From: Candidatus Saccharimonadota bacterium
GTDB lineage: Bacteria > Patescibacteriota > Gracilibacteria > UBA4473
NCBI GenBank assembly: GCA_020632335.1
Contig: JACKFV010000001.1
Coordinates: 480,001-512,000 of the forward strand
Direction of reading: 5' to 3'
Length of the DNA stretch: 32,000 bases
Under the pieces are notes generated by a model. It was not told where the DNA came from, made no database searches, and saw only the letters and a program-made list of their open reading frames with translations. The position numbers and the translations under genes are program-made. Positions 2,267 to 17,431 of the stretch are shown here, piece by piece (the stretch's first letter is position 1; every line of letters starts with the position of its first letter).

Positions 2267-2343
2267 TGGCGGGACCGACGAGACTCGAACTCGCGACCTC
2301 TGCCGTGACAGGGCAGCGCTCTAACCAACTGAGCTACGATCCC
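2267..2343 (-). tRNA. tRNA-Asp (anticodon GTC), CCA encoded
   Basis: Reverse complement folds by hand into a cloverleaf. Acceptor GGGATCG/CGGTCCC, D arm GCTC-AGTTGGTTA-GAGC, anticodon stem CTGCC/GGCAG with loop CTGTCAC, T arm GCGAG-TTCGAGT-CTCGT. Discriminator G plus CCA. Confidence 0.93.
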
Positions 2344-2367: not shown

Positions 2368-2395
2368 TTTATAGGCCGATGACCCCGGGTGTCAA
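2368..2395 (-). promoter_or_regulatory. Sigma70-type promoter of tRNA-Asp (TTGACA-N16-TATAAA)
   Basis: On the minus strand TTGACA = 2390-2395, 16-nt spacer, TATAAA = 2368-2373, about 25 nt upstream of the tRNA 5' end. Confidence 0.5.
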
Positions 2396-2404
2396 CCAAA
2401 TGGT

Positions 2405-2417
2405 AATGGTGGGCATG
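2405..2417. repeat. 13-bp direct repeat AATGGTGGGCATG, distal copy of the tRNA-Ile 3' end (att-like)
   Basis: Identical to 3136-3148, which is the last 11 nt of tRNA-Ile plus 2 downstream nt. The two copies bracket the AT-rich segment. Confidence 0.8.
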
Positions 2418-2514
2418 GGGAAGACAGCAATTGAACGGTTAACTAAACGGTGTGATGTCGTTTTTTGTCAGGTTATAAAAGAGTTGAAAGAATACTTGTC
2501 TTCAAATTCAGAAA

Positions 2515-3129
2515 TTATGATGAATAATTTTTTAACGGTTTTAAAATAAGAGTTTCAAATATCAAATTAAAATTCTTTTTTAATTGTGAATCATTTTCTA
2601 CTTTTTCAATATAATTTTTAGCATAATCCCAAATTGCATCTTTAAATGAGTCAACATTAATAAGAAATCCTCCATGGATTGGATTTTTTGAAATAGGTAA
2701 TTCTGAAAAATTAATACAATCAATCAAAAAATGATTACTCATTGAGGTTGAATGGAACAATCCACAACGTGCAAATTTATAAAAATTATCAAAAAATACA
2801 TCTTCAATTTCTTCTTCAAAAAGTTTATTTCCTCTTAAAAATTCAATAAATTCCCTAAGGCTTTTGATAAAAAAATCTTTAGATTTGCCCTGAGAAGTTT
2901 TTCCCTCTAAATACTGACCATGAGTTTCAAAATACATGAGTAATATTGAAAAAACTGACATTCGATAATCAGTATCTTGCTTACTTAAAAGTCTTTCACA
3001 AGGTTTAATCAGCCATTTTTCAACTTGTGACAAAAAAGCTTTTTCATAAGAAACTTGTTTATTCTCTAAATCAGCAAGAGTGATTTCCGATGTCAATCGA
3101 ACCATTCTATTCATTGAGTTGCTTGTCAT
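2515..3129 (-). CDS. Hypothetical protein, islet cargo, AT-rich codon usage (possible HEPN-like Rx4H motif)
   Basis: The ORF-track start at 3147 lies inside tRNA-Ile. The first ATG outside the tRNA is 3129 (MTSNSMNRM...), giving 204 aa. I recognise no family. FARCGLFHS fits R-x4-H. Stop TAA 2515-2517. Confidence 0.6.
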   Translation of the reverse strand: MTSNSMNRMVRLTSEITLADLENKQVSYEKAFLSQVEKWLIKPCERLLSKQDTDYRMSVFSILLMYFETHGQYLEGKTSQGKSKDFFIKSLREFIEFLRGNKLFEEEIEDVFFDNFYKFARCGLFHSTSMSNHFLIDCINFSELPISKNPIHGGFLINVDSFKDAIWDYAKNYIEKVENDSQLKKNFNLIFETLILKPLKNYSS

Positions 3130-3135
3130 GACATA

Positions 3136-3148
3136 AATGGTGGGCATG
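3136..3148. repeat. 13-bp direct repeat AATGGTGGGCATG, proximal copy within the tRNA-Ile 3' end
   Basis: Exact match to 2405-2417. Confidence 0.8.
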
Positions 3149-3214
3149 CGAGGACTTGAACCTCGGACCTCGTCCTTATCAGAGACGCGCTCTAACCAGC
3201 TGAGCTACACGCCC
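3138..3214 (-). tRNA. tRNA-Ile (anticodon GAT), CCA encoded
   Basis: Reverse complement GGGCGTGTAGCTCAGCTGGTTAGAGCGCGTCTCTGATAAGGACGAGGTCCGAGGTTCAAGTCCTCGCATGCCCACCA. Anticodon stem CGTCT/GGACG with loop CTGATAA, T arm CGAGG-TTCAAGT-CCTCG. Confidence 0.93.
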
Positions 3215-3237: not shown

Positions 3238-3265
3238 ATAGTAGAAGGCCGCAGCAACCTGTCAA
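3238..3265 (-). promoter_or_regulatory. Sigma70-type promoter of tRNA-Ile (TTGACA-N16-TACTAT)
   Basis: Minus strand TTGACA = 3260-3265, 16-nt spacer, TACTAT = 3238-3243, about 24 nt upstream of the tRNA 5' end. Confidence 0.55.
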
Positions 3266-4130: not shown

Positions 4131-5237
4131 TTACGAACGCCGCTGCAGCGTAAGCATATAGCCGCACAGCGCAAGGAAAAAGAAAAAGATGAGCCACTGG
4201 CCGCCACTTCCCGCTACTGGTAGTGCTGGGGGGAGTTCGGCTGTTTCGGCATCGTCTGGGGTCTCCGTCGGCGTACTGGCACTGCCCCCCAGCACGGTGG
4301 TGATCTCATCAGGGTGGGTGCGGTCTAGCCACTGGGCCAGCTTAAACCGGCCATCTGAGGGGGCTGTACTCGGTGTCAGCAGCGCCTGCTTTTTCTTATA
4401 GAAGCTCTCTGCAAAGCTCACCGTGGGGTCTTTGGCCCCTCGTCCCACGCTGGTGGTGCCTGTCGGTACAGCGGTTTCTTTGGCCTGGAAGAGCGGCAGC
4501 GCCTCATACACTACCCCCGTCTGTGAGGTTTTCTCACAGGTCTGCGTATCTTCACGGTACTCATAGCGGTACTTGCAGGTGACCCGACACTGCACATTAT
4601 CCACCATCCCATTGGCCACACGGCTGGGGAGAGAGCAGATATTCGGGTAGGCCTTCACCAGCGCCACGGCAGAGAAGGTCGACGGCAGCGTCGCCGTACA
4701 GAGCCCCTCGCTCACCGTGCAGCGCATGCCCTCGCCCAGGTACCACTGCCCCTGGTGCTGTACGGCTATATAGAGCGGCTGGCCGTCCGCCACGGTGGTA
4801 GCAAAGGCGACTTGCGGCGCGGGGGTGATCTCCCAGTTCTGGGCAGTCGCGCCTATGCTATAGCTCTGCAGTACCTCTGTATACTGGAATCCTCCGGTAG
4901 TCTGCTCCAGCGCGGTAGAGAGCTGCAGCGCGTCTGCCTTCGGTTTGGCTGCGGGGAGGAAGCCTCGGAAGACCCCATCCCAGGGAGTGCTAGTGGTTAT
5001 TTGGCTCCCCGGCTGCAGGGCGATTTTGGGGTAGTTTTCGGCACTCTGGGAGTAGCCCAGCACCAGTGATCCAGGCCCCTCCAGCACCGCCACCGTACCC
5101 GCATCACGAGCCTCTCGGGAGGGAAAGGACACCTCATGCGCATAGTAATCATCATAGAGCGGCGCGTCGATGACCTGCGCGGCCACTAAGAGCGGGAACC
5201 CCATCATCGCCGACGCCAGTACAAAAAATGCACGCAT
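4131..5237 (-). CDS. Secreted Cys-rich surface protein with C-terminal sorting signal LPVAG + TM + QRRS
   Basis: N-terminal signal peptide MRAFFVLASAMMGFPLLVAAQV. Eight Cys in the mature central part. C-terminus LPVAGSGG-QWLIFFFFLALCGYMLTL-QRRS (LPVAG = 4209-4223). No family recognised. Confidence 0.8.
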   Translation of the reverse strand: MRAFFVLASAMMGFPLLVAAQVIDAPLYDDYYAHEVSFPSREARDAGTVAVLEGPGSLVLGYSQSAENYPKIALQPGSQITTSTPWDGVFRGFLPAAKPKADALQLSTALEQTTGGFQYTEVLQSYSIGATAQNWEITPAPQVAFATTVADGQPLYIAVQHQGQWYLGEGMRCTVSEGLCTATLPSTFSAVALVKAYPNICSLPSRVANGMVDNVQCRVTCKYRYEYREDTQTCEKTSQTGVVYEALPLFQAKETAVPTGTTSVGRGAKDPTVSFAESFYKKKQALLTPSTAPSDGRFKLAQWLDRTHPDEITTVLGGSASTPTETPDDAETAELPPALPVAGSGGQWLIFFFFLALCGYMLTLQRRS

Positions 5238-5412
5238 GCTAGCATTGTCAGCCAGATCTGTGAAAAAGCAACTATCGCCCCTTGTGCGGAGAGGAATATA
5301 TTGTGAAGAGACATTATAGGTGTGTCACCAGAAGACAGGTATAAAACCACAACAGAGTATTTTGCATAGAGAAATTAGAGACACAAATATTGAACAACCA
5401 GCCAGAAATCAT

Positions 5413-8400
5413 ATGGTGAGAACCGTTATTCATATATTTTTCATGAGAGGAGTATCTCGATTCGGGTTGTGCGTTGTTAGCATTATGGGGGTCAGCATGC
5501 TCACCGGGGCGAGCTTTGCGGCGCCGGTGCCTGATTGTAGTACCACAGAGAGCAGCATTACTGCTAGTGCTGCGGGGGCCTTCACGGCAACGGTCACCCT
5601 GGAGAACACGGGGGACAGCACCGGCTACGCGCCCACAGTGTCTCTGATGCTCCCTCAGGAGCTCACTCTGCTGGGAACTCAGTACCGAGGAGAGACGCTG
5701 CCGGTCTTTCAGCAGGAGGTCTCTAGCACCGGGACGGTTATAGACGCGCTCACCGGGCAAGCTGTGGCGGTCCCCATTGGGCAGACGTACGCCGCGGTAC
5801 TCCTGCCGGAGGGGTCGCTGCCCACGGCGCACCTGGCTCTCTCGCTCGACCTCACTCTGGCCTTTGCTCCAGGAGTCCCCTTAGACACCCCTCTCTCTTC
5901 TTCTCTACAGGTGACGTGCGGTTTTGCTCGTGGAGCCACTGCCGCTGATGACCCTATTGCAGACCCAGCGCTCAGCAGTGGCCCCCTGCTCCTGAGCCTC
6001 ACCCCGAGTAGCGAGCCCCCCGTACCCCCTACCAGTACCGTGAATGCTCTTAGCCTGCAGCAGACCGTGCGAGCCGTGCAGCGTGGGGGCGTCTTCACCC
6101 AGAACCCCAGCCCTACAGACCCGCTGCGTGCGGGAGACATGGTGACCTATAGCCTCACCCTACAGCAGTCCTTGCCCATAGCCGCTACCGAGATAACCCT
6201 GAGCTTCCCTACACTCTTTATAGAGGCTGCGTCTCTCACGAGCGCCGGGACCAGTGTGCTGACGGCTGAGAGCGCCTCTAGCGTCCCCGCGGTGGGGGAG
6301 CTGAGCTATGGGCCGGCAACGCTGCACACGGGTGAGCCGCTCCCGCTGCCACTCCTAATGCCAGACGCCGTGGCGAATACGGCCCTGGTTTCTCTGCCGG
6401 ATACTACGAGCCTTGGGAATACTCTAGAGCTCCTCTATACCGTGCAGATTGCTGATATGCCTGCTATAGATCGGGCTCCGCTGCTGGTCAGCGCTGCGGC
6501 TACCAACGCCGTAGGAGCGGACACCACCGGTATCCTCCAGACCCTCAGCATGCCATCGCTACGGCTGCAGCAGGGCATCATCGCCACTACAGACACTGGG
6601 GCGGTTTTCCTCCCGGTGAATCGCGGCCCGGTGCCCTTCAACCCCATGAGCAACCCGCTGGCCTTCTCTGACGGCTTTGTGTCGGAAGACCTCACCATCG
6701 TACCCATAGACAGTAACGTCGCCGGTGCCAGTGGTGGGGCGCGCATGCGCTACGCGGTGCTGGTGGAGAATCAGGGCTCGGCGCCGGCCTATAACATCAC
6801 GCTGAGCGACAGTCTCTCCGCGATGCAAGAGATCCCACTCGACGAGACAGATGTCAATATCCGTGTGCTGAGCGGTGCAGCGGTAGACCGTACGGCAGCC
6901 TTCACTGGGGGGCTCTTTGGCTACACGGCCATGGGGGCCACAGCAGACGCGTCTAATGCCTCGATACAGCTGACCGAGGGGCGGCTGGAGGGCCTGAGTG
7001 AGCAGACCGACCGTGGGGGGAGCGCTGCGGGGGAGAATATCCTCCTCCTGAGCTATGACCTGCAGCTCAAGACCACTACCCAGCCCCTCATGGTGGTGAG
7101 TAACGCTGCGTCGCTGGTGCGCTACACGGCGGTGGAGAACAGCCCGCAGAACTACATCACCAGCGCTAGCGAGCACACTGACTTTGCTACCGTCTCTCTG
7201 GGAGGGGTAACGATGGAGAAGCGTCTGCTGCCCTCCACCGTGCAAGACCTCGCCCATACAGACAGCACCCTGGGCGACGCCACCATAGGCGAGATGATAC
7301 GCTACCAGCTGCGCTTTACGGCGCCAGAGGGGGACATCCTCACCCCGCGCATCGTGGACTACATCCCTGACGGTATGGCGTACTACAAGCCTACGGGAGT
7401 TCTCTTTAATACCACCTGTGGTGCCAAGCCCTTTGTGGGGAGTATTCCACCACTGAAGGTCCCCGGGACGCCCCCCTTCCCCATTGTGCCCTCGCACCAG
7501 GTGACCTCCCCACTGGGGACTACCGGCATTGCTGGGTCTGGCGAGCCGCTGCGAGTGGAGTTTAATAGTAATATCTCTGTGACGCCTGATGGCGACCCCG
7601 ACACCAATACCTTCTGTATGGAGTATGAGGTTGTAGTGCTGGATATGCCCAGCAATAACGGTCTGCCCAACTACTCCACCCTGCGGACCAACGAGGCTAC
7701 GCTTGAGTATGGGTCACTGGGGCAGAGCATCGGCCCCGTAAGCACCACCGTGAATATTGTGGAGCCCGAGCTGGCCATCACCCAGACGATCACGCCAGCT
7801 ATGGGAGAGGGAGGGGACACCGTCACCATCACCAGCACGGTGCAGCACACCAGCCGCAGCTCTGCTGATGCCTTTGACGTCCGCATCACCAATGGGATCG
7901 TTGACCCCAGTACCGGCATACCTATGGTGCCGGAGCGCTTTATTATCGACGCTGATTTTGCAAATGACGGGATAGATAACGACGGTGATGGACTGCTGGA
8001 TGCCGCCGACCCAGACGAAGTAGCCGGGAGCTTCTATGATGCCACGACTCGTGCGTTCCGTTGGGACCAGACCACCGTGAGCGATGCGCTCTTCCAGCAC
8101 TGGCCCATGGGGAGTACCCGCCGCCTGGCCTACCGGGCCGTGATAGACCAGAGCGTGGTGCCTAATGAGATCATAGATAATAACGCTACGGTAGTGTGGG
8201 ATACCGTCCCTGGGGAGTCTGTCAGCCCCCTGCCAGAACGCCAGAGTGCCGCTGGGGCTGGGGCAAGCTTCCGCGTGCGTAACCTGGAGATAGAGAAAAC
8301 CGCGCCCTTTACCTCCGCGGCGCATACCGGTCAGTCCACTTACTTGGTAGACACGCCCTTCTTGGCCATCGGAGAGCAGGTGACCTTCCGCGTGCGAGTG

Positions 8401-11400
8401 GCCGTGCCCGCTGCCACCATGTATGCCCTCACCATTGCAGACATCATGCCGCGGCCCGTCAGCTCTCCGGCCAGCGCGCCAGACTTCTTCCGCGTAGAGA
8501 GCGTGACCCAGACCCCTACGGATATCTTCACCGAGGAGCCCACCATCACCCTCTCAGATACCAACGCTGATGGGAATAATGACCGCTTTGACATCGTCTA
8601 TCCCCTAGCGATTAAAGACCCCAGCGCGACCGACACGCACCTGGAGTTCCTCGTGGTGGCCACCGTGCTCAATACCCCCGCGACGCGCAACCTCATGACA
8701 CTGCGCAATACCGCGTATGTTTACTTCCAGAACGATAAAGGTGTGTGGTCCAGCCCCGAGCAAGACTCGCAAGACGTGCAGTTTGTGGTGCCGCGGCTGA
8801 CGCTGGAGAAAAGCGCGGATACCACCGAGGTAGAGGCCGGAGACGTCACCCTCATCACCCTCACCTATGACCACCACAATGCCAGCTCTGCGGCAGATGC
8901 CTTCCATCTGCAGCTGGTAGATGCCCTCCCACCAGAGATGCGTGCGGTGGGAGACTTTGGCACCGATGGGGTGGATAACGATGGCGATGGCGCTATAGAC
9001 GAAGCCGATGAGGCTGCAGCGGCTTTCTTTGATCCGGGGACGCAAACGCTCACCTTTAATGACTCCACCACCGACAATCCCGCCTTCACGCAGTATAAGA
9101 AGAGCGATGCTCCTATTACCATTGCTTTCTATGCGCAGTTCACGGCGGAGGTGCGGCCCGCTACGCAGGTGACGAATACCGCGACGCTGACGGCCACCAC
9201 GCTGCCAGAAGACAGCCCCGACGCCCGTACCATCAGCGTGAGTGACCACCATAACTTTACGATAGAGCCGATCACCATCGAGAAGTACGTTGCCAATACC
9301 AGTAATGGTGACACCGGCACCAGTGCCTATACCCCCACACTCACAGACCTCGCTCTGGGGGAGGAGGTGACGTATCATATTCCTATTACGGTGCCAGAGA
9401 GCACCATGACGGCCTTCACGGTGGTGGATACCCTGCCCCCCTTCTTAGAGGCGCTGGGCGGAGAAATCGTCTCTACTGATGGCATCACCCACACCATGAC
9501 TGCCCCCACGCTGGAGGACAGCAATGGCGATGGCACGCTTGACCGAGTGATCTTTGCGCTGGGGACTGTGCGTAATGACGTAGCTGATGACGACACCGAG
9601 ACGCTCCTGCTTAGCGTTACCGCGCGGCTCTTGCCCGTGGAGGGCGTGCCAGCTGGGCGAGCGCTCACCAACACCGTCACCGCCACGTATAGCGAGAACC
9701 CTCACCCTCCCTATACCGCTAGCGCTGTGGTGGAGCCTCTTATCCCCACCCTCCGGCTGGAGAAGACCGCCAGCCCCCTCCTTGCCCTGCCAGGGGAGGA
9801 CGTCACCTATACCCTCACGGTGACGAATATCGGCAATGCCCCTGCCTATGATCTCACCCTTACCGACCCCCTCACACCGGTACTCCATGCAGTAGAGAGC
9901 TTTGCCAGTGATGGGCGAGACGAGACCGGTAATGGCGTTGCTGATGACGCCCCTGAGGACACCGCGCCCTTCTATGACCGTGCGGAGCAGCGCTTCCTCT
10001 GGGACGTCAGCACCACGAACAATGATGCCTTTGCGCGGCTCTTACCGGGGGAGCAGATCACCCTGCAGTTCTTGGCCGAGCTGGACACCAGCGTCACCCC
10101 CGCCAGCAACCAGCAGAATACCGCCACGCTACAGTACCAGGCGCTCCCCGGTCCTCTTGACGCTGCAGCACGCCCCGCACCGGGGATGACCTTCACCACC
10201 AGTGATGATGCGGTGATCACCGTTCCCTTTGACAGTAGCGTGACCAAGGACCTGCGCGACGACGACACCGAGAAACGCATTGGCGATACCATCCCCTACA
10301 CCATACGCCTGCAGGTGCAGGAGGGAGTGCTCGACCCCGTGAGCCTGACCGATACGCTCCCGGCAGGGCTGGCATACCTCCCCGGTACGCTGCGCATTGG
10401 CACCAGCCCCAGCGTGCAATACAGCGCCAGCGTGACCGACTGGGACGCCATTACCCCGGCGTCTGAGGGCATCACTACCGGCGAGAGCCAGACGCTCGAG
10501 CTGCTCCTGGGGCGGATAGAAAACACTGACACCGACCCCAGTAGTGAGGAGTACCTGTGGGTGGATTTTGACGCGCTGGTGATGAACACCGCCGACAACG
10601 CCGAAGGCACCACGCACCAGAATGCCGCCACGGTGAACTTTGCCGGTACGGTGGTGGGGCCCGTACTTGCCCCGGTGGTGACCGTACACGAGCCGCAGCT
10701 CAGCATTCACATCACCCCCAGCTATACCGGGGGGTCTACGGTGCTCTATACCGTGACTATAGCCAGTACGGGCACCCATAGCGCTGACGAGGCCTTTGAC
10801 CTCGACCTCTGGACGCTCTTCCCTCCCGAGCTTACCTATAATGGTGATCTCACACTCGTGAATGGCCACCGCCCCCCTACCGAGATCACCACGGGCCTCC
10901 CACACGTGCAGTGGCAGCTGGAGGACTTCCCGCCTCTCTACACCACTGCTAACCCCTATACCTTCACCTTTACCGCTACGGTAGGGGCAACCGTCACCGC
11001 TGGCCAGAGTATTACCGTGCCAGTAGACCTGCCATATACGTCTCAGCCAGGGGCGCCCGGAGAGCGTATCCCTGGGAATCCCCTCTCTACCGAGCGTACG
11101 GGGGATACCGCGCTTGGTGGTGGGGCCGAGAACGACTACCGCACGCAAGACAGCGCCACCATCACGCTTACTCGGGCAGACCTACGGACGTCGCTCAAGA
11201 CCGTTATAGACGTCAACGGTGGCCTGGTGCAGCCCGGTGACACTCTGCGCTACCGCCTGGAGGTGGTCAATACCGGGAATGTCCCCGCGCGTGACGTGCT
11301 GGTGAGCGACTCCATCCCCGCACAGACCGAGCACTTCACCTGGGTTATTGGCCCAGACGCCACGGTGGTAGACGAGAGTAATACCTCCACCGGTGGAGAG

Positions 11401-13248
11401 TATGACAACGGCCTGGTGCAACTGCGGGGCTTTACGCTGGCGCCTCTGGCAGAAGCACCCGAGAACACGCGTATCTTCGAGTACACCGTGACTGTCGTAG
11501 AGAATGCTCTCCCGCATCAGCCCATTACGAATGCCTTCACCGCGACCACGCCTGATGGCCCTGGAGGGGAAGACAGCACCACCACTACTGTCGAGCAGCC
11601 AGAGCTCAGCATTGTGAAGAGTGCCTTCCCCAGCGGCCCTGTGCACCCCGGTGATCTGGTCACCTATACCGTCACGGTGCAGAATACCGGGAATGCCCCT
11701 GCCAGCAATGTCCTGCTCACTGACCCCCTGCCCGATACCATGCGCTACGTACCCGGGACGCTCTTGCTAGACGATCACCCGCTTACCGATGCCGCAGATG
11801 CCGATGCGGCTGACTATAACCACACCAGCAGTACCGCCGTTACGCTTGCCTGGCCCAGCCTGGCGGTGGAGGAGCAGCTGACGCTGCGCTTCACGGTGCA
11901 GATGGCCGCGCTGAGTGGCCTGGTGACGAATACCGCCACCGTACGGGACGACACCGGCAGAGAGACACAGGGCAGCGCCAGCGTGCTCGTCGTCCCCGAG
12001 GAAGGCACTCTGCCCCCCACCACCCCGGGGACCGTGCCGTCTACGCCGTATGTGATCCGCTACAGTACCCCGCCAGCAGCCGTGCCCACGACTCCCACAG
12101 TAGTGGTAGAGCAAGAGGACCCGAAGGAACCAGACCTCTTCCTCTACCCCAAGCCTACTACGCGGCAGGTGCTCATCACGCATGCCCCGGTCACTAATGA
12201 CCTGGAGCGGGTGGAGATGATCCCCCAGACCGGAGGGATCCTCCAAGAAGCCCTGGCAGCCTCTCGCTTCACCGACGCTCTCCCCACAGACGCCGCCTAC
12301 CTCCCGGCTATAGAACTCACTAACCAGGGCTACATCCAGCCGAATGCAGACCGCGCCATACGCCTGAGCGATGCTATCACTCGTGCGGAGGCCGTGAAGC
12401 TCATAGCGCTAGGGTTTAAGCAGGCCGATGAGTCTATACCGCTGTCTCTCTCCAGCTCCTATACTGATGTGCCCGACGGCCACTGGGCGTTGCCCTATAT
12501 GCACTACGCCGCTGAGCATGGCCTTATGCAGGGTTATGGGAATGGGAGCTTTGGGCCAGAGGATTCCCTTACGCTCTCTCAGGCGGCGGTAGTGCTCAGT
12601 CGTGTCTTTGGCATCACCCCACAGCAGACGGCCACCGGGAGCCACTGGGCGGAGGGAGCACTCCAGTCTCTCCGTGCGCGGGGAGTCCTCACCGACGAGC
12701 TCCTCCCTGAGGCCACGTATGAGTCAGTGCTCAGTCGTGGGCAGTTCTTCACGCTCTTCTACCGGCTGCTAGAGCTGCGCAATGCTGGCCTGCAGACTTA
12801 CTTTGACGCGCTCACGCTGACTATCCCTTCTCTGGAGATAGAGGCTCTTCCGGTGCGCCGCGGGCTTATCAGTGAGCCGAGCATCTGGAAGAAGGCGCTG
12901 GATGAGGGCGCGGTATTCTACCAGTATAAGCAGCCCGGTAACCGCGGGAAGATCGTGCTCTTTGGCCACTCCTTCAGCAACCCGGCCTATGCTCCTGCGC
13001 GCTATGCCTTCACCAGGCTCATCAAGGGCCTCCACCCCGACGATACCTTTGAGATCACCATTGATGGCATTACCCACCTGTATCAGGTCACCCAGCATGA
13101 GGTCATCAGCGCTGAGGAGGTGCGCGTGCTGGAGAGCTTTGACAGTGGGCGGGCTGACATGGTGCTCTTTACTTGTGATACCACAGATCTCTCGCTCCGG
13201 CATGTCTTTGAGGCTGTGCGGCTGGATAGTTACCCGGCACACCGCTAA
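5413..13248 (+). CDS. Giant (~2,610 aa) secreted repeat protein: DUF11/Cna-B-like repeats, Pro/Thr linker, IPQTGG, 3x SLH, C-terminal sortase domain
   Basis: Uninterrupted 7.9-kb frame. ATG 5413 (alternative ATG 5443) precedes the signal peptide ...MRGVSRFGLCVVSIMGVSMLTGASFA/AP. The track start 5320 is a GTG right after a stop. Repeats of the type PGDLVTYTVTVQNTGNAPASNVLLTDPLP. C-terminal modules are listed separately below. Confidence 0.9.
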   Translation: MVRTVIHIFFMRGVSRFGLCVVSIMGVSMLTGASFAAPVPDCSTTESSITASAAGAFTATVTLENTGDSTGYAPTVSLMLPQELTLLGTQYRGETLPVFQQEVSSTGTVIDALTGQAVAVPIGQTYAAVLLPEGSLPTAHLALSLDLTLAFAPGVPLDTPLSSSLQVTCGFARGATAADDPIADPALSSGPLLLSLTPSSEPPVPPTSTVNALSLQQTVRAVQRGGVFTQNPSPTDPLRAGDMVTYSLTLQQSLPIAATEITLSFPTLFIEAASLTSAGTSVLTAESASSVPAVGELSYGPATLHTGEPLPLPLLMPDAVANTALVSLPDTTSLGNTLELLYTVQIADMPAIDRAPLLVSAAATNAVGADTTGILQTLSMPSLRLQQGIIATTDTGAVFLPVNRGPVPFNPMSNPLAFSDGFVSEDLTIVPIDSNVAGASGGARMRYAVLVENQGSAPAYNITLSDSLSAMQEIPLDETDVNIRVLSGAAVDRTAAFTGGLFGYTAMGATADASNASIQLTEGRLEGLSEQTDRGGSAAGENILLLSYDLQLKTTTQPLMVVSNAASLVRYTAVENSPQNYITSASEHTDFATVSLGGVTMEKRLLPSTVQDLAHTDSTLGDATIGEMIRYQLRFTAPEGDILTPRIVDYIPDGMAYYKPTGVLFNTTCGAKPFVGSIPPLKVPGTPPFPIVPSHQVTSPLGTTGIAGSGEPLRVEFNSNISVTPDGDPDTNTFCMEYEVVVLDMPSNNGLPNYSTLRTNEATLEYGSLGQSIGPVSTTVNIVEPELAITQTITPAMGEGGDTVTITSTVQHTSRSSADAFDVRITNGIVDPSTGIPMVPERFIIDADFANDGIDNDGDGLLDAADPDEVAGSFYDATTRAFRWDQTTVSDALFQHWPMGSTRRLAYRAVIDQSVVPNEIIDNNATVVWDTVPGESVSPLPERQSAAGAGASFRVRNLEIEKTAPFTSAAHTGQSTYLVDTPFLAIGEQVTFRVRVAVPAATMYALTIADIMPRPVSSPASAPDFFRVESVTQTPTDIFTEEPTITLSDTNADGNNDRFDIVYPLAIKDPSATDTHLEFLVVATVLNTPATRNLMTLRNTAYVYFQNDKGVWSSPEQDSQDVQFVVPRLTLEKSADTTEVEAGDVTLITLTYDHHNASSAADAFHLQLVDALPPEMRAVGDFGTDGVDNDGDGAIDEADEAAAAFFDPGTQTLTFNDSTTDNPAFTQYKKSDAPITIAFYAQFTAEVRPATQVTNTATLTATTLPEDSPDARTISVSDHHNFTIEPITIEKYVANTSNGDTGTSAYTPTLTDLALGEEVTYHIPITVPESTMTAFTVVDTLPPFLEALGGEIVSTDGITHTMTAPTLEDSNGDGTLDRVIFALGTVRNDVADDDTETLLLSVTARLLPVEGVPAGRALTNTVTATYSENPHPPYTASAVVEPLIPTLRLEKTASPLLALPGEDVTYTLTVTNIGNAPAYDLTLTDPLTPVLHAVESFASDGRDETGNGVADDAPEDTAPFYDRAEQRFLWDVSTTNNDAFARLLPGEQITLQFLAELDTSVTPASNQQNTATLQYQALPGPLDAAARPAPGMTFTTSDDAVITVPFDSSVTKDLRDDDTEKRIGDTIPYTIRLQVQEGVLDPVSLTDTLPAGLAYLPGTLRIGTSPSVQYSASVTDWDAITPASEGITTGESQTLELLLGRIENTDTDPSSEEYLWVDFDALVMNTADNAEGTTHQNAATVNFAGTVVGPVLAPVVTVHEPQLSIHITPSYTGGSTVLYTVTIASTGTHSADEAFDLDLWTLFPPELTYNGDLTLVNGHRPPTEITTGLPHVQWQLEDFPPLYTTANPYTFTFTATVGATVTAGQSITVPVDLPYTSQPGAPGERIPGNPLSTERTGDTALGGGAENDYRTQDSATITLTRADLRTSLKTVIDVNGGLVQPGDTLRYRLEVVNTGNVPARDVLVSDSIPAQTEHFTWVIGPDATVVDESNTSTGGEYDNGLVQLRGFTLAPLAEAPENTRIFEYTVTVVENALPHQPITNAFTATTPDGPGGEDSTTTTVEQPELSIVKSAFPSGPVHPGDLVTYTVTVQNTGNAPASNVLLTDPLPDTMRYVPGTLLLDDHPLTDAADADAADYNHTSSTAVTLAWPSLAVEEQLTLRFTVQMAALSGLVTNTATVRDDTGRETQGSASVLVVPEEGTLPPTTPGTVPSTPYVIRYSTPPAAVPTTPTVVVEQEDPKEPDLFLYPKPTTRQVLITHAPVTNDLERVEMIPQTGGILQEALAASRFTDALPTDAAYLPAIELTNQGYIQPNADRAIRLSDAITRAEAVKLIALGFKQADESIPLSLSSSYTDVPDGHWALPYMHYAAEHGLMQGYGNGSFGPEDSLTLSQAAVVLSRVFGITPQQTATGSHWAEGALQSLRARGVLTDELLPEATYESVLSRGQFFTLFYRLLELRNAGLQTYFDALTLTIPSLEIEALPVRRGLISEPSIWKKALDEGAVFYQYKQPGNRGKIVLFGHSFSNPAYAPARYAFTRLIKGLHPDDTFEITIDGITHLYQVTQHEVISAEEVRVLESFDSGRADMVLFTCDTTDLSLRHVFEAVRLDSYPAHR
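7963..9960 (+). repeat. Three diverged ~315-333-aa protein modules, each with an Asp-rich DG(I/V)DNDGDG-type loop
   Basis: NDGIDNDGDGLLDAADPDE (7963-8019), TDGVDNDGDGAIDEADE (8962-9012) and SDGRDETGNGVADDAPED (9907-9960). Each is followed by F(Y/F)D....(F/L)xW(D)/FND. Confidence 0.7.
12220..12237 (+). other. Internal sortase-recognition-like motif IPQTGG inside the giant protein
   Basis: Codons atc ccc cag acc gga ggg. This is the only [LI]PxTG match I found scanning the whole ORF by eye. Not followed by a hydrophobic segment or basic tail. YPK at 12145-12153. Confidence 0.6.
12268..12780 (+). other. Three tandem SLH (S-layer homology)-like modules of the giant protein
   Basis: FTDALPTDAAYLPAIELTNQGYIQ...ITRAEAVKLIA; YTDVPDGHWALPYMHYAAEHGLMQGYGNGSFGPEDSLTLSQAAVVLSRVFG; HWAEGALQSLRARGVLTDE...LSRGQFFTLFYRLLE. 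Confidence 0.75.
12808..13245 (+). other. Sortase (transpeptidase) catalytic domain at the C-terminus of the giant protein
   Basis: LTIPSLEIEALPV...LDEGAVFY..QPGNRGKIVLFGHS (His codon 12967-12969) ...DDTFEITIDGITHLYQVTQHEV... ADMVLFTCD (Cys 13174-13176) ...LSLRHVFEAVRL (Arg 13198-13200). Order and spacing match the sortase H-C-R pattern. Confidence 0.8.
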
Positions 13249-14202: not shown

Positions 14203-14964
14203 CTACATTTTGTAGGGGGTGAAGTGTACCCCTATGAGAGTGTTGGTGGTTGCTTTACTCCCCCCACTTATGGGGAAGGAGCGTGTCCATTCTATAAAGA
14301 AGGGGAGCTTGCCGGTGGTACATCGTAGGCGCAGCTCGCCCCAGGTTTTTGCCGGGGATTTTCCATCAGCCCATAGACGGTAGTATCCATTATTGAGGGA
14401 GAGTTGCAGAGGCCCCATGACTCTGGTGGCTACCCAGCTGAGCATGAGGCGTTTCTGGTGCGGGTACCTTATCTGATGACTGTAGTAAACGCCACTTCCT
14501 AGGAATTTCACGTTGTACAAGAGGGGAAATCCTCCCAGGGATAGGGTGTCTTTTAGTGTCCTGGTGAGTGTAATCATGAAAGAGAGAAAGTCATAGTCTC
14601 CTCCCACATTACCGGTCACCCATTGGATACCTGCTGATACTCCTACATTTCTTAGATGGGTATTGTATTGGCTCCCTATGCTGTAGTCACTCTCAGCTGG
14701 TTTCCCGAGTACTTGGGCTCTGGTGCCCAAGAGGGTGAAACTCCCGTGAGGGGTCTTCCATCTTGTTTTGAGGTTTACAAGCAGGGTGGGGTTATGAGTG
14801 AGCATCACATTATTAGAGATGCGATACCCGTCGATCCCCATGGCCTCCTGGAGTTGTACCTGTTGGAGATGCCAGTTGAGGCTGTCTGTTTGAGAAATTT
14901 GTGCGCTAGCTTGGCTGATACTCAGCACTAGCATTGCAAAAATAATTACTAGTTTCATTTTCAT
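14203..14964 (-). CDS. Secreted protein with beta-barrel (outer-membrane-protein-like) sequence pattern
   Basis: Signal peptide MKMKLVIIFAMLVLSISQASA/Q. Repeated alternating hydrophobic/polar strands (LQLSLNNGYYRLWA, GELRLRCTTG, FFIEWTRSF, TLIGVHFTPY) with an aromatic residue near the C-terminus. GC about 47%, atypical for this window. Confidence 0.55.
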   Translation of the reverse strand: MKMKLVIIFAMLVLSISQASAQISQTDSLNWHLQQVQLQEAMGIDGYRISNNVMLTHNPTLLVNLKTRWKTPHGSFTLLGTRAQVLGKPAESDYSIGSQYNTHLRNVGVSAGIQWVTGNVGGDYDFLSFMITLTRTLKDTLSLGGFPLLYNVKFLGSGVYYSHQIRYPHQKRLMLSWVATRVMGPLQLSLNNGYYRLWADGKSPAKTWGELRLRCTTGKLPFFIEWTRSFPISGGSKATTNTLIGVHFTPYKM

Positions 14965-15215
14965 TTTGACATAGGAATTGATGGTTCACAAGTATTAAAA
15001 GGCACTAAAATTGGGAAATCTCGTAACGTATCAGAAAATGGCAAGATAAAACACTCTACTTTTTTTGATAGAAAAAACCATATTCACTATTCACTTTGAA
15101 GTCAAAGGTGATGTAAATAGTGACTTAAATCTTGAGAGTTTTACACTTGAAGAGGTTAAATACTACAATGGCTTGTACTTAGCAAAATTAGGAATTATTA
15201 ATCTACCAATTTGAA

Positions 15216-15692
15216 ATGAAGGCAATAATCAAAAAACTACTTAAACCAATAATGTTTATTCGGAGACTATATTGGAGATTACTAAGACCAACTACAATTG
15301 GTGTGCGTGCGCTATTACTTACAAAAGACAAAAAAATTTATCTAATTCTACATAATTACTCAAATAAATTTTATTTACCTGGGGGTAAAGTAAAAAAAGG
15401 TGAGTCATTAGAAAAAGCAGTTAAAAGAGAGATAAAAGAAGAAATTGGCGATGTAGAATATCAGAGTCTTGAAGTATTTAGCACTTACTTTAATAACTTC
15501 GAATTTAAGTGCGATTACATAACGGTCTTTGTGGCATTTATTTCTAACGAGATAAAAACGAAATCAGATTTCATTGAGGTTGACGAAGCAAGAATCTTTA
15601 ATTTGAATAAGTTGCCAGATAATATTTCACCTGGAACTAAAAGAAGAATTTTGGAATACCTTGGTAATAAAGAAAAATCTTTCTCGTGGTAG
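15216..15692 (+). CDS. Nudix hydrolase
   Basis: Complete Nudix box GGKVKKGESLEKAVKREIKEEIG (G-x5-E-x7-REUxEExGU). 158 aa, about 30% GC. Confidence 0.88.
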   Translation: MKAIIKKLLKPIMFIRRLYWRLLRPTTIGVRALLLTKDKKIYLILHNYSNKFYLPGGKVKKGESLEKAVKREIKEEIGDVEYQSLEVFSTYFNNFEFKCDYITVFVAFISNEIKTKSDFIEVDEARIFNLNKLPDNISPGTKRRILEYLGNKEKSFSW

Positions 15693-16492
15693 TATCTTAC
15701 ATCAACAATGAAAAATATATCGGCACGTCTGTCGAGATAGAGCTTATTAAAAAATTTCTAAAAAGCAAGAGAAAATGTGAAATTAATAATTCACTTCTAA
15801 ACTATTTGGAAACATTAGAGTATTCGGTAAAAAATGATTTTACAAATTTGGTTTTATCATTTACAGACTATTTTTTTCAAGAATGGAATTTAAAATTTAC
15901 TCCAATACCATTTGAAAGATATATGGTAAACACCCCAATAAATATAGGAGGTTTTTATGGGAGTCCTGTTGGAGGATATAAGTCTTTTGAGCAATATGGT
16001 TTTTCAACAGTATTAGATGTGAATAAAATACCAAATAGGAAATTGATTATATATGAACTATGTAGAAATTATCTCCACGATTGTATTCATTTCAATACAT
16101 TCAAAAGCTACAAAATCAACAAGTCACAAAAAACTGTCTATAGGTATCAATATGGGATAAACTTTAGAAACCAAAATGGAATTTCTTACTCATCTGTCGC
16201 ATGTACGAAGAAATCACCGTATTCAATTAATTTAAATGTACTTATGGATGGAGTGACTCATATTATCGTAAATGAATTTGTATCTAAGACTTTAATAAAT
16301 GAATTAAAGCATTCGCCCCTGAATGAATTAGAGAGGTCGGTGAAGGACGAAATTATGGGGTTAAGCCTTTATGTTGATTTTCATATTTTTCTATTTTTAA
16401 AATTTTATACAATACAATATTATTTGGAATTGCGCTATAAAAGAACATCATATATATATATATATCATATTTTCTTTATCGTCAAGCATTGA
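15686..16492 (+). CDS. Hypothetical protein overlapping the Nudix gene by 7 nt; C-terminal ~45 aa look like read-through into AT-rich non-coding DNA
   Basis: GTG start at 15686 overlaps the Nudix stop. No family recognised; contains YLHDCIHF. The tail ...FHIFLFLKFYTIQYYLELRYKRTSYIYIYHIFFIVKH spans an (AT)8 tract and ends exactly at the GC jump. Confidence 0.45.
   Translation: MVVSYINNEKYIGTSVEIELIKKFLKSKRKCEINNSLLNYLETLEYSVKNDFTNLVLSFTDYFFQEWNLKFTPIPFERYMVNTPINIGGFYGSPVGGYKSFEQYGFSTVLDVNKIPNRKLIIYELCRNYLHDCIHFNTFKSYKINKSQKTVYRYQYGINFRNQNGISYSSVACTKKSPYSINLNVLMDGVTHIIVNEFVSKTLINELKHSPLNELERSVKDEIMGLSLYVDFHIFLFLKFYTIQYYLELRYKRTSYIYIYHIFFIVKH
16450..16465. repeat. (AT)8 dinucleotide microsatellite at the right edge of the low-GC island
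   Basis: atatatatatatatat read directly from the sequence. Confidence 0.9.
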
Positions 16493-16546: not shown

Positions 16547-17431
16547 ATGATACGGACAGCAATAGTACCGGTGGCGGGGATGGGAACGCGGCTCTTGCCG
16601 GCCACGAAAGCGGTACCGAAGGAGCTGCTGCATGTCTTTGATATGCCGGTGCTGGAGCGGATAGTGGAGGAGCTGGTGACCGCGGGGATAGAAAAAATCA
16701 TCTTTGTCACGCACCCGGGGCGTAAGGGGGCCATTGAGGCGCACTTCACCCCCGATCCCTTCCTCGAGCAGCAGCTGGCGGCAAAGGGAAAGCAGCAGCT
16801 GCTGGAGAAAGTACAGCGGACGCATACTATGGCGGAGTATCACTTTGCGGTGCAGGAGGAACCGCTGGGGAGTGGGCATGCGGTGCTACAGGCGCTGCCA
16901 TTCCTCGACAACAATGATGAAGCGGTGGTGGTGTGCTTTGGGGATGATCTGGTAGATACCGGCAGCGCGCCCAATGCGGTGGAGCAGCTATTACGCATCT
17001 ATGAGGACTATGGCTGCCCATCCTACTATGTGATGTCGGTGCCGAGGGAAGACGTGAGCGCCTATGGGGTTATTGACCCCGGGCCAGGCTATACGGAGGG
17101 CGACGCGGTAGTGCCTGTGTGCGGATTCAGCGAGAAGCCCACCCCTGCCGCGGCGCCGTCGAATCTCATTAGCATTGGCAAGTACGTGGTGACGCGCCCG
17201 GTGCTGGACTTACTAGAGAGTCAAGAGCAGGGTGCCGGCAATGAGATTAACTTCCCCGAGGCTATAGAGCGTCACCGTCAGGCTGGTAACCCGGTGATGG
17301 CCGCCGTGATGGACGGTCAGCGGTTTGACACCGGTACGCACCTGGGGCTGCTGCACGCGGTAGTGCACTATGCGCATCAGCAGCACCCCGATGCGGTGGC
17401 GGCGATAGTCCGGCCCTACGGAGAGGCCTAG
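16547..17431 (+). CDS. galU: UTP--glucose-1-phosphate uridylyltransferase
   Basis: N-terminal AIVPVAGMGTRLLPATKAVPKELLHV signature, 294 aa. Its stop overlaps the RNase J stop by 4 nt (convergent). Confidence 0.9.
   Translation: MIRTAIVPVAGMGTRLLPATKAVPKELLHVFDMPVLERIVEELVTAGIEKIIFVTHPGRKGAIEAHFTPDPFLEQQLAAKGKQQLLEKVQRTHTMAEYHFAVQEEPLGSGHAVLQALPFLDNNDEAVVVCFGDDLVDTGSAPNAVEQLLRIYEDYGCPSYYVMSVPREDVSAYGVIDPGPGYTEGDAVVPVCGFSEKPTPAAAPSNLISIGKYVVTRPVLDLLESQEQGAGNEINFPEAIERHRQAGNPVMAAVMDGQRFDTGTHLGLLHAVVHYAHQQHPDAVAAIVRPYGEA

Follow-up and report, generated by a model that had tools for sequence, protein, structure and literature searches.

What is a single AT-rich gene doing directly behind a tRNA gene of a genome rich in guanine and cytosine (GC), enclosed between two copies of the tRNA end? 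The gene lies in the stretch of DNA analysed here, 32,000 nt of contig JACKFV010000001.1 (480,001-512,000, forward strand), which we call the window and in which positions are counted from the first nucleotide. The explanation that we favour, with some reservation, is that positions 2407-3137 are a complete, horizontally acquired copy of a small integrative cassette that encodes no recombinase. The cassette belongs to a previously unnamed family of recombinase-less cassettes at tRNA 3' ends in Gracilibacteria and other Patescibacteria, of which no description was found in the searchable literature.

The segment is bounded by a 13-nt direct repeat. Two exact copies of the 13-mer AATGGTGGGCATG, and no others, are present in the window: 2405-2417 and 3136-3148 (forward strand); positions 3138-3148 are the final 11 nt of a tRNA-Ile(GAT) gene, including its encoded CCA, and 3136-3137 are the 2 nt that follow. 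This gene, the integration target (3138-3214, reverse strand), is intact, with a 3' end that terminates in GCATGCCCACCA, and is recognized by ARAGORN and by the Rfam tRNA model (69.3 bits). Read on the reverse strand, the proximal repeat is CATGCCCACCATT, with the core GCCCACCA at 3138-3145 on the attL side; the distal repeat carries the same core at 2407-2414 on the attR side, and the host flank resumes at or near 2406. The interval between the copies (2418-3135, 718 nt) has a GC content of 27.6%, against 59.1% for the remainder of the window, falls to 21-31% in 200-nt windows across the insert, and contains one long open reading frame (ORF). The initial annotation had proposed this repeat, an AT-rich interval with a single ORF, and a chance recurrence of order 1e-5. 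The repeat and the tRNA boundary are borne out by exact matches and by the tRNA predictions, the composition by our measurements, and the probability by a recomputation that gives about 3e-5 expected recurrences of an exact 13-mer within 1 kb (2 x 1000 / 4^13); a shuffle test of the repeat allowed two mismatches and is uninformative on exact matches. The strongest evidence against a chance origin is comparative, in that the distal copy ends a module of about 100 nt that is conserved at some 15 other loci.

The most direct comparison is with OY760177.1, a 1.93-Mb chromosome with 28% GC labelled Candidatus Gracilibacteria. The closest relative of the cargo protein (P0002, 84% identity) is encoded there directly 3' of tRNA-Met(CAT), and the window is 84% identical in nucleotides over 800 nt to this locus (L001 and L012; L numbers designate the loci that we compared). 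Between the window and L012 homology opens at the tRNA CCA, takes in a short leader, the whole ORF and some 100 nt of non-coding sequence, and closes at CTGTCTT, after which both genomes carry a short copy of a tRNA 3' end. Because the boundaries are identical, one 0.73-kb unit lies behind two different tRNAs in two very different genomes. Reading the donor in genetic code 25 was considered and dropped, since the ORF ends of L012 barely differ between codes 11 and 25, and we make no claim about it.

The cargo gene itself bears the marks of its origin. Its GC content at third codon positions (GC3) is 15.5%, where host genes have 67-77%, and comparison with the L012 copy gives 0.54 synonymous (dS) and 0.088 nonsynonymous (dN) substitutions per site, a dN/dS of 0.16. 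Purifying selection therefore acts on the gene, and its composition has not moved towards that of the host; judged by these figures, the gene is foreign, recent and functional. The best named hits of the host RpoD, 72-75% identical, are sigma factors labelled Candidatus Gracilibacteria, and the recipient is accordingly a high-GC relative, of Gracilibacteria class, of the low-GC donors.

About 15 further loci have common ends. We scanned genome and metagenome contigs with the pattern GTTCAAT-NN-CTGTCTT-N4-9-CCACCA and dropped as chance those matches that had no module upstream (6 of 14 in genome contigs, 5 of 14 in metagenome contigs). The copies obtained in this way lie in metagenome-assembled genomes labelled Gracilibacteria, Patescibacteria or Peribacteria and in unlabelled metagenome contigs, with 29-44% GC; small proteins called across the module led, when looked up, to a marine genome with 46% GC (L049-L058) and to loci L059-L064. 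CBFIAK010000001.1 is another sequence that carries the module. The common anatomy consists of a target tRNA ending in GCC(C)ACCA, the left end TTTATGTCATGACAA, one or a few cargo genes, and a module of about 100 nt that ends in GGTTCAATATCTGTCTTG-N5-7-CCCACCA. Modules of class A, to which the window copy belongs, are attached to at least five unrelated cargos, and the same ends enclose different cargo in L018, L019, L021, L027, L049 and others. On the copies at hand, the home of the family is the low-GC Gracilibacteria and Patescibacteria, where cassettes occur behind tRNA genes singly or in stacks of up to five. The string ATGTCATGAC ... GGTTCAATATCTGTCTTG-N5-7-CCACCA can serve as a signature for finding more of them. 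A transposon of the insertion sequence (IS) or miniature inverted-repeat (MITE) type was rejected as a description of these units: they have no terminal inverted repeats, and the shared flank, 13 nt here and 7-8 nt elsewhere, is always a tRNA end.

The initial annotation had read the repeat as the trace of site-specific integration at the tRNA-Ile 3' end, and this reading gains support from the 0.73-kb unit at tRNA-Met and from the identical ends on at least five unrelated cargos. It had suggested searching for cargo and repeat in other contigs or phages, of which the contigs returned OY760177.1 and the loci described above, while the phage, plasmid and viral collections returned none. It had also left the choice between a decayed island and a minimal cassette mobilized in trans. 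Identical units at different tRNAs favour the cassette and tell against decay. Hotspots at tRNA genes commonly hold degenerate islands with partial tRNAs (10.1101/2020.12.28.424599), and an in-situ remnant of a larger integrase-bearing island at tRNA-Ile, with one gene left, would likewise lack a recombinase. However, it is implausible that decay independently produced this 0.73-kb unit a second time, with the same boundaries, at another tRNA and in another genome; both conserved ends are intact, and the ORF is under purifying selection and unameliorated. We thus consider a remnant improbable, and an integrase-less islet need not mean decay.

The same comparison bears on the assembly. The contig is of metagenome type and its GC content falls from 59% to 28% at the insert, as if a low-GC fragment of a co-occurring Gracilibacteria genome had been spliced into a high-GC contig. 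However, assemblers work with k-mers much longer than an overlap of 13 bp, the host sequence continues on either side in the order expected, and the junctions are the exact cassette ends known from independent assemblies, so that such an artefact is very unlikely.

How far the cassette form extends is best seen in OY760177.1. Downstream of its tRNA-Met the right-end sequence occurs five times (four consensus modules and one variant) and delimits five tandem units of 0.4-2.8 kb, the first of which is the window-type cassette. This array (L012 9902-17935, corresponding to OY760177.1 at about 1619633-1627666) carries as cargo AAA_21, AAA_15 with RloB, and several unknown genes, and it looks like a defence island assembled cassette by cassette. 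Besides AAA_21 and AAA_15 with RloB, the other cargos of the family include PhnB-like and RibD_C-like genes and a restriction-modification pair with a LexA-like S24 peptidase. The AAA_15 and RloB cassette, which occupies position 5 of the tRNA-Met array, recurs in L020 with 78.5% identity over 2374 of 2414 nt, directly 3' of tRNA-Leu(CAG). The targets are thus tRNA-Met, tRNA-Leu and tRNA-Ile genes, all ending in GCC(C)ACCA; the tRNA-Asp of the window, which ends in CCCGCCA, is unoccupied. Some cassettes lie in reverse orientation.

Two loci illustrate the range of cargo. L049 10024-10748, on a TARA metagenome scaffold, is a single-gene RibD_C-like (dihydrofolate-reductase-like) cassette at tRNA-Met of the 46%-GC marine genome, with no integrase within 10 kb; its gene recurs in 37 collection blocks, and the genome has been recovered from many samples. 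L017 633-5936 and L030 hold a 5.8-kb unit between tRNA-Met and a class B module, which carries a type II-like restriction-modification pair (a 622-aa methylase-like ORF and a 268-aa ORF) and a LexA-like S24 peptidase repressor, and no integrase.

The right end of the window cassette (class A module, 2407-2514, reverse strand; nhmmer E 5.8e-17) has two parts: 2407-2457 is a degenerate 3' half of a tRNA-Met, with variable loop, T arm and an acceptor end that terminates in the core, and 2458-2514 is additional conserved sequence. By eye, 20 of the first 22 nt of the module are identical to the resident Gracilibacteria tRNA-Met, in a match that spans the 3' strand of the anticodon stem, the variable loop, the T stem and the T loop. 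With the core held fixed, the score of the module against tRNA-Met was reached by 0-4 of 2000 shuffles for the low-GC copies and by 12 of 2000 for the window copy, whereas 233 of 2000 shuffles reached the score of the window copy against the host tRNA-Ile. The distal tRNA-like region, as these scores indicate, is mostly an element-borne fossil of a Gracilibacteria tRNA-Met 3' half and not a displaced end of the host tRNA-Ile. Across the family, the core shared by tRNA and module is only 7-8 bp, GCC(C)ACCA (GCCCACCA or CCACCA), and the 13-bp identity is peculiar to the window copy. The window and L012 modules are about 85% identical by eye over some 97 nt, and the adjacent ORF has a dS of 0.54. 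The module thus appears to evolve more slowly than synonymous sites (about 15% difference by eye), and since this difference lies far below the expectation from dS, the non-coding module is constrained. Folded as single-stranded DNA, the module forms no hairpin beyond those of shuffled sequences on either strand, in the window or in L012 (z-scores -0.5 to +0.5), and no inverted repeat joins the two ends of the cassette.

The left end is the other fixed point of the family. In the window TTTATGTCATGACAA occurs once, at 3123-3137 on the reverse strand, where it begins right after the CCA, and the motif also follows the tRNA or the core in L012 (twice), L018, L019, L021, L027 and L049, with the variants TTGAATGTCATGACAAA and TTCAATGTCATGACCAA across the family. 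It contains a perfect 10-bp palindrome, TGTCATGACA (3124-3133, reverse strand), which may be a protein-binding site or a translational feature. On the cargo strand the palindrome reads ATG TCA TGA, a two-codon mini-ORF directly 3' of the tRNA CCA.

How, then, would such a unit move? We infer a circular cassette whose attachment site consists of module, core and left end, and which would recombine at the 3' end of a tRNA gene, with the crossover inside the 7-8-bp core or next to it. This would require a site-specific recombinase that is encoded outside the cassette, most plausibly one of the tyrosine type; a core of 7-8 bp is typical of the overlap region of tyrosine recombinases. Such an enzyme, absent from the cassettes, must come from a helper that would act in trans or through tandem accretion and co-excision, the latter as described for the cis-mobilizable elements (CIMEs) discussed below. 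The predicted empty site reads GCATGCCCACCATTACCATTTGGTTGACA and the predicted circle junction CTGTCTTCCCCATGCCCACCATTTATGTCATGACAAGC. In all targets a T-loop box stands at a fixed distance from GCC(C)ACCA, which could explain both the use of several tRNA species and the absence of a cassette from tRNA-Asp with its CCCGCCA end. After the insertion the tRNA-Ile gene stays intact.

A dedicated recombinase may also be dispensable. Natural transformation with homologous exchange between tRNA-Met loci, through homology provided by the tRNA together with the tRNA-like module or the downstream flank, would spread cassettes among tRNA-Met genes, and the rare moves to tRNA-Leu and tRNA-Ile would be explained by a looped-out circle that inserted illegitimately at CCCACCA through microhomology. 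In favour of this, none of the copies has an integrase nearby, the majority of copies sit at tRNA-Met, the resemblance of module and tRNA-Met (20 of 22 nt by eye, and significant over the whole module) offers a substrate for looping-out by RecA, and the 13-bp identity of the window copy is unusually long. However, two cassette types sit at tRNAs other than tRNA-Met with boundaries exactly at the core, and illegitimate events would not pick the same 7-8 bp repeatedly; the left end ATGTCATGAC and the module, moreover, are conserved beyond neutral sites, which suggests recognition by a protein. We regard a recombinase-free origin as unlikely.

A recombinase of the host is another candidate. In this alternative a housekeeping enzyme, for example of the Xer type, moves the cassettes in the manner of IMEX elements (integrative mobile elements exploiting Xer) and pdif modules, which use XerC/D. 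It accords with cassettes that never carry a recombinase and occur in many genomes, and the left end TTATGTCATGA agrees by eye with 7 of the 9 positions that a consensus for the XerD arm, TTATGTNAANT, specifies, which is a lead only. However, no XerC-arm-like sequence and no 11-6-11 dif architecture is visible around the core, and the targets are tRNA ends and not the chromosome dimer-resolution site. Xer-type mobilization seems to us quite unlikely, and we return to integration by a site-specific recombinase that a helper element would supply.

Several observations weigh against this reading. Neither a recombinase nor a circular junction nor an empty site was observed, and the mechanism is read from the anatomy of the copies. 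With phmmer and the XerD, lambda Int and gamma-delta resolvase sequences as queries, no recombinase was matched at E < 0.1 in six-frame translations (codes 11 and 25) of the window and of L001-L040; this screen is crude, with three query sequences and at most 10 kb covered per side, so that a distant, unusual or unannotated recombinase would be missed. The precomputed Pfam columns likewise hold no recombinase family within up to 10 kb on each side of several loci, L049-L064 included. No carrier came to light: cassette and cargo have no DNA or protein match in the phage and plasmid collections, and the module and left-end patterns find nothing real in viral contigs, where three pattern matches were rejected as chance. 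Scans of genomes, metagenomes and viral contigs yielded no integrase-bearing relative with the cassette ends, which is weak evidence because they required exact patterns. As for the empty site, the exact pattern of a tRNA-Ile end, 45-75 nt and a tRNA-Asp start occurs nowhere in the genome contigs, and the nearest three RpoD homologues that we inspected (identity of about 75% or more) lie in loci with no tRNAs after rpoD and with a different gene order. For a tyrosine recombinase one would expect inverted core-type binding sites spaced by 6-8 bp, and none is evident around the core. The hosts add a further reservation, for only the window and L049 (46% GC) lie outside low-GC hosts, so that transfer across base compositions is rare.

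The attR sequence of the window is a difficulty of its own. Immediately left of the core the window reads CCCCATG where the family consensus is GGAAGC, and its last 4 nt match the host tRNA. This CATG match to tRNA-Ile is what lengthens the repeat to 13 nt, and a simple crossover within the 7-bp core does not predict such a sequence. It may stem from strand exchange that started 5' of CATG, from later gene conversion, or from earlier residence at a similar tRNA-Ile, and we cannot tell which.

A conserved reading frame on the strand opposite the tRNA, which spans the core, is not accounted for by the reading either. In the window it runs from the core into the module (MVGMGKTAIERLTKRCDVVFCQVIKELKEYLSS..., ORF at 2379-2549, forward strand), and its consensus is GGxxKTDIEPxTKRxDxILxxVLxxLKxYLSS; the frame is present in the window, L012, L017, L026, L037 and others. 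The frame is conserved in the family with coding-like substitutions: differences distribute as 314/225/494 over the three codon positions, a period-3 pattern, and the ratio of nonsynonymous to synonymous differences (pN/pS) is 0.35-0.46 in this frame, where the other two give 0.75-1.2. The frame of class B cassettes extends into a conserved protein of about 80 aa, for which the AlphaFold2 (AF2) model gives a helical hairpin in the C-terminal half and a disordered N-terminus encoded by the att region. Classes A and C retain only 35-50 codons of the frame, and the element itself usually provides no start codon for them. In the window copy CCCCATG has one base more than the consensus, which places two ATGs in frame. 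A profile search for a full-length protein behind the frame gave only proteins of 57-123 aa.

What the cassette brings to its host is a protein of 199 aa (2515-3114, reverse strand) from a large uncharacterised family with invariant QGKSK and ARCGLFH motifs. The ORF, the only long one between the repeats, was called as 2515-3147 (reverse strand, 210 aa), and its real start according to homologues is 3114. The protein has no Pfam or PADLOC match and only sub-threshold matches in NCBIfam and PHROGs. A word-indexed protein search found five relatives only, whereas a profile search of 1.84 billion representative proteins returned 1282 clusters at E <= 0.001; the relatives are all named "hypothetical protein" in their sources. 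The AF2 model is confident (mean predicted local distance difference test score, pLDDT, of 90) and has no match at E <= 0.001 in the PDB or in BFVD, a collection of viral structures. Outside cassettes, in L002/L003 and L007, homology covers little more than the ORF and extends at most about 40 nt past the stop; the gene, then, was captured.

The company that this family keeps is that of type I restriction and other defence genes. Its neighbours include HsdR (L008-L011) and ResIII with AAA_21 (L002), and single members are fused to HEPN_AbiU2 or to HsdS. The invariant RCGLFH has the form R-x4-H, and HEPN motifs the form R-x4-6-H; the protein has no Pfam HEPN match and no fold match in the PDB. 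The QGKSK and RCGLFH motifs are compatible with a nuclease or nucleotide-binding role and prove nothing. A defence-linked accessory role is our best guess, which we offer with low confidence, and it flags this uncharacterised family of 1282 clusters as a candidate defence component.

The expression of the cargo is probably tied to the tRNA. Its ORF starts 23 nt past the CCA on the tRNA strand, and a scan of the cassette found no promoter-like site on the reverse strand and no terminator-like site. The promoter-like sequence 5' of tRNA-Ile (3238-3265, reverse strand; TTGACA, 16 nt, TACTAT; 10 of 12 matches) is the sole such site on the reverse strand able to drive tRNA-Ile and the cargo ORF. 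With this promoter upstream and neither promoter nor terminator in between, the cargo is probably co-transcribed by read-through from the tRNA-Ile promoter.

The distal repeat, as had been noted from the start, stands just upstream of the promoter of a tRNA-Asp(GTC) gene (2267-2343, reverse strand; ARAGORN and Rfam), which ends in CCCGCCA and has no core. We read this promoter at 2368-2395 on the reverse strand as TTGACA (2395-2390), 16 nt and TATAAA (2373-2368). Each of the two tRNA genes has a near-consensus promoter of this kind. The cassette therefore splits two independent tRNA transcription units and not one operon. The two tRNAs are the only known RNA families that Rfam detects in the window, and neighbouring host genes have housekeeping functions (SecA, RpoD, a DsbA-like protein and FolD).

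Further along the window we observed a 2642-aa ORF (5320-13248, forward strand) with DUF11 and related repeat domains, an SLH domain and a C-terminal sortase domain, preceded by an intergenic region of 40% GC (5200-5500). A second low-GC islet (14930-16490, 24-33% GC in 200-nt windows) lies between an ORF at 14203-14964 (reverse strand) and a nucleotidyl-transferase gene at 16547-17431 (forward strand). It contains an ORF at 15216-15692 (forward strand) with a readable Nudix box, GGKVKKGESLEKAVKREIKEEIG, and a 268-aa ORF at 15686-16492 (forward strand) with no Pfam match; it lacks a tRNA, the end motifs of the cassettes and any convincing repeat at its flanks, and an (AT)n run lies near its end, at about 16452-16466.

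The genomes of candidate-phylum bacteria are tiny, few mobile elements have been recognised in them, and gene exchange among these bacteria is poorly known. The cassettes described here show a compact, repeatable way of installing single accessory genes behind tRNA genes, and many of these genes are related to defence. It operates without a resident integrase, in hosts that differ widely in base composition. As a wider proposal, put forward tentatively, Gracilibacteria and related Patescibacteria may possess a tRNA-based, integron-like capture platform, in which modules of about 100 nt derived from tRNA-Met would guide serial insertion at tRNAs ending in GCC(C)ACCA by a dedicated recombinase encoded elsewhere. 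Forward cassettes would be expressed from the tRNA promoter, and arrays would be exchangeable stores of defence and accessory genes that can cross between hosts of 28% and 59% GC. If a dedicated recombinase does read the T-loop and the acceptor end of many tRNAs, this would be a second, independent invention of integron-like capture, and it could become a small tool for targeting tRNA loci.

Several known systems resemble these cassettes in part. Genomic islands inserted into tRNA genes by tyrosine integrases, as defined in Islander (PMC4383910), share with them the insertion in the 3' part of a tRNA gene that remains intact, the tRNA-derived direct repeat at the far end, the foreign composition and the tandem stacking at one tRNA. 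Unlike these islands, the cassettes have no integrase, measure 0.4-2.8 kb (0.73 kb here), use several tRNA species, share 7-8 bp with the target, and have as one arm a degenerate tRNA-Met fossil that is carried to other tRNAs. The tycheposons of Prochlorococcus have a deep-branching tyrosine recombinase and further hallmark genes as their defining features; newer elements stack next to the tRNA and push older ones into the island, and remnants occur (10.1101/2020.12.28.424599). Both are cargo elements at tRNA genes separated by partial tRNAs, but no cassette carries a hallmark recombinase or genes for replication or packaging, and the cassette termini are conserved family-wide even in single-gene units.

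The best functional analogue is provided by the CIMEs, which have lost their integration and transfer genes, keep attL and attR, and are moved by a helper after tandem accretion (ICEberg 2.0, PMC6323972). The cassettes likewise keep both conserved ends and the core copies without a recombinase. Unlike them, CIMEs derive from known integrative and conjugative elements of Firmicutes with an identified helper; the cassettes are much smaller, form arrays of up to five, and inhabit candidate-phylum hosts.

Integron cassettes, for their part, contain one or a few genes and a recombination site of about 100 nt, encode no recombinase of their own, and form arrays at a fixed platform whose promoter probably expresses the first of them. 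The likeness lies in the small units, the module of about 100 nt, the arrays at a platform and, for the first cassettes, probable expression from the platform promoter; the difference is that the module is not an attC-like hairpin, that no IntI or attI lies nearby (no integrase within 10 kb), that the platform is a tRNA gene, and that part of the cassettes are inverted. In archaeal integration of the SSV (Sulfolobus spindle-shaped virus) type, attP lies inside an ORF. In the cassettes, too, the tRNA-like attachment sequence is protein-coding, with a frame that spans the recombination core, but the product is a protein of about 80 aa, or else a stub of 35-50 codons that has no start, and not an integrase. 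Taken together, the family is akin to the integrative elements that target tRNA genes and to their integrase-less hitchhikers, and is distinguished from them by its minimal cassette form, its family-wide termini, the formation of arrays and the use of several tRNAs.

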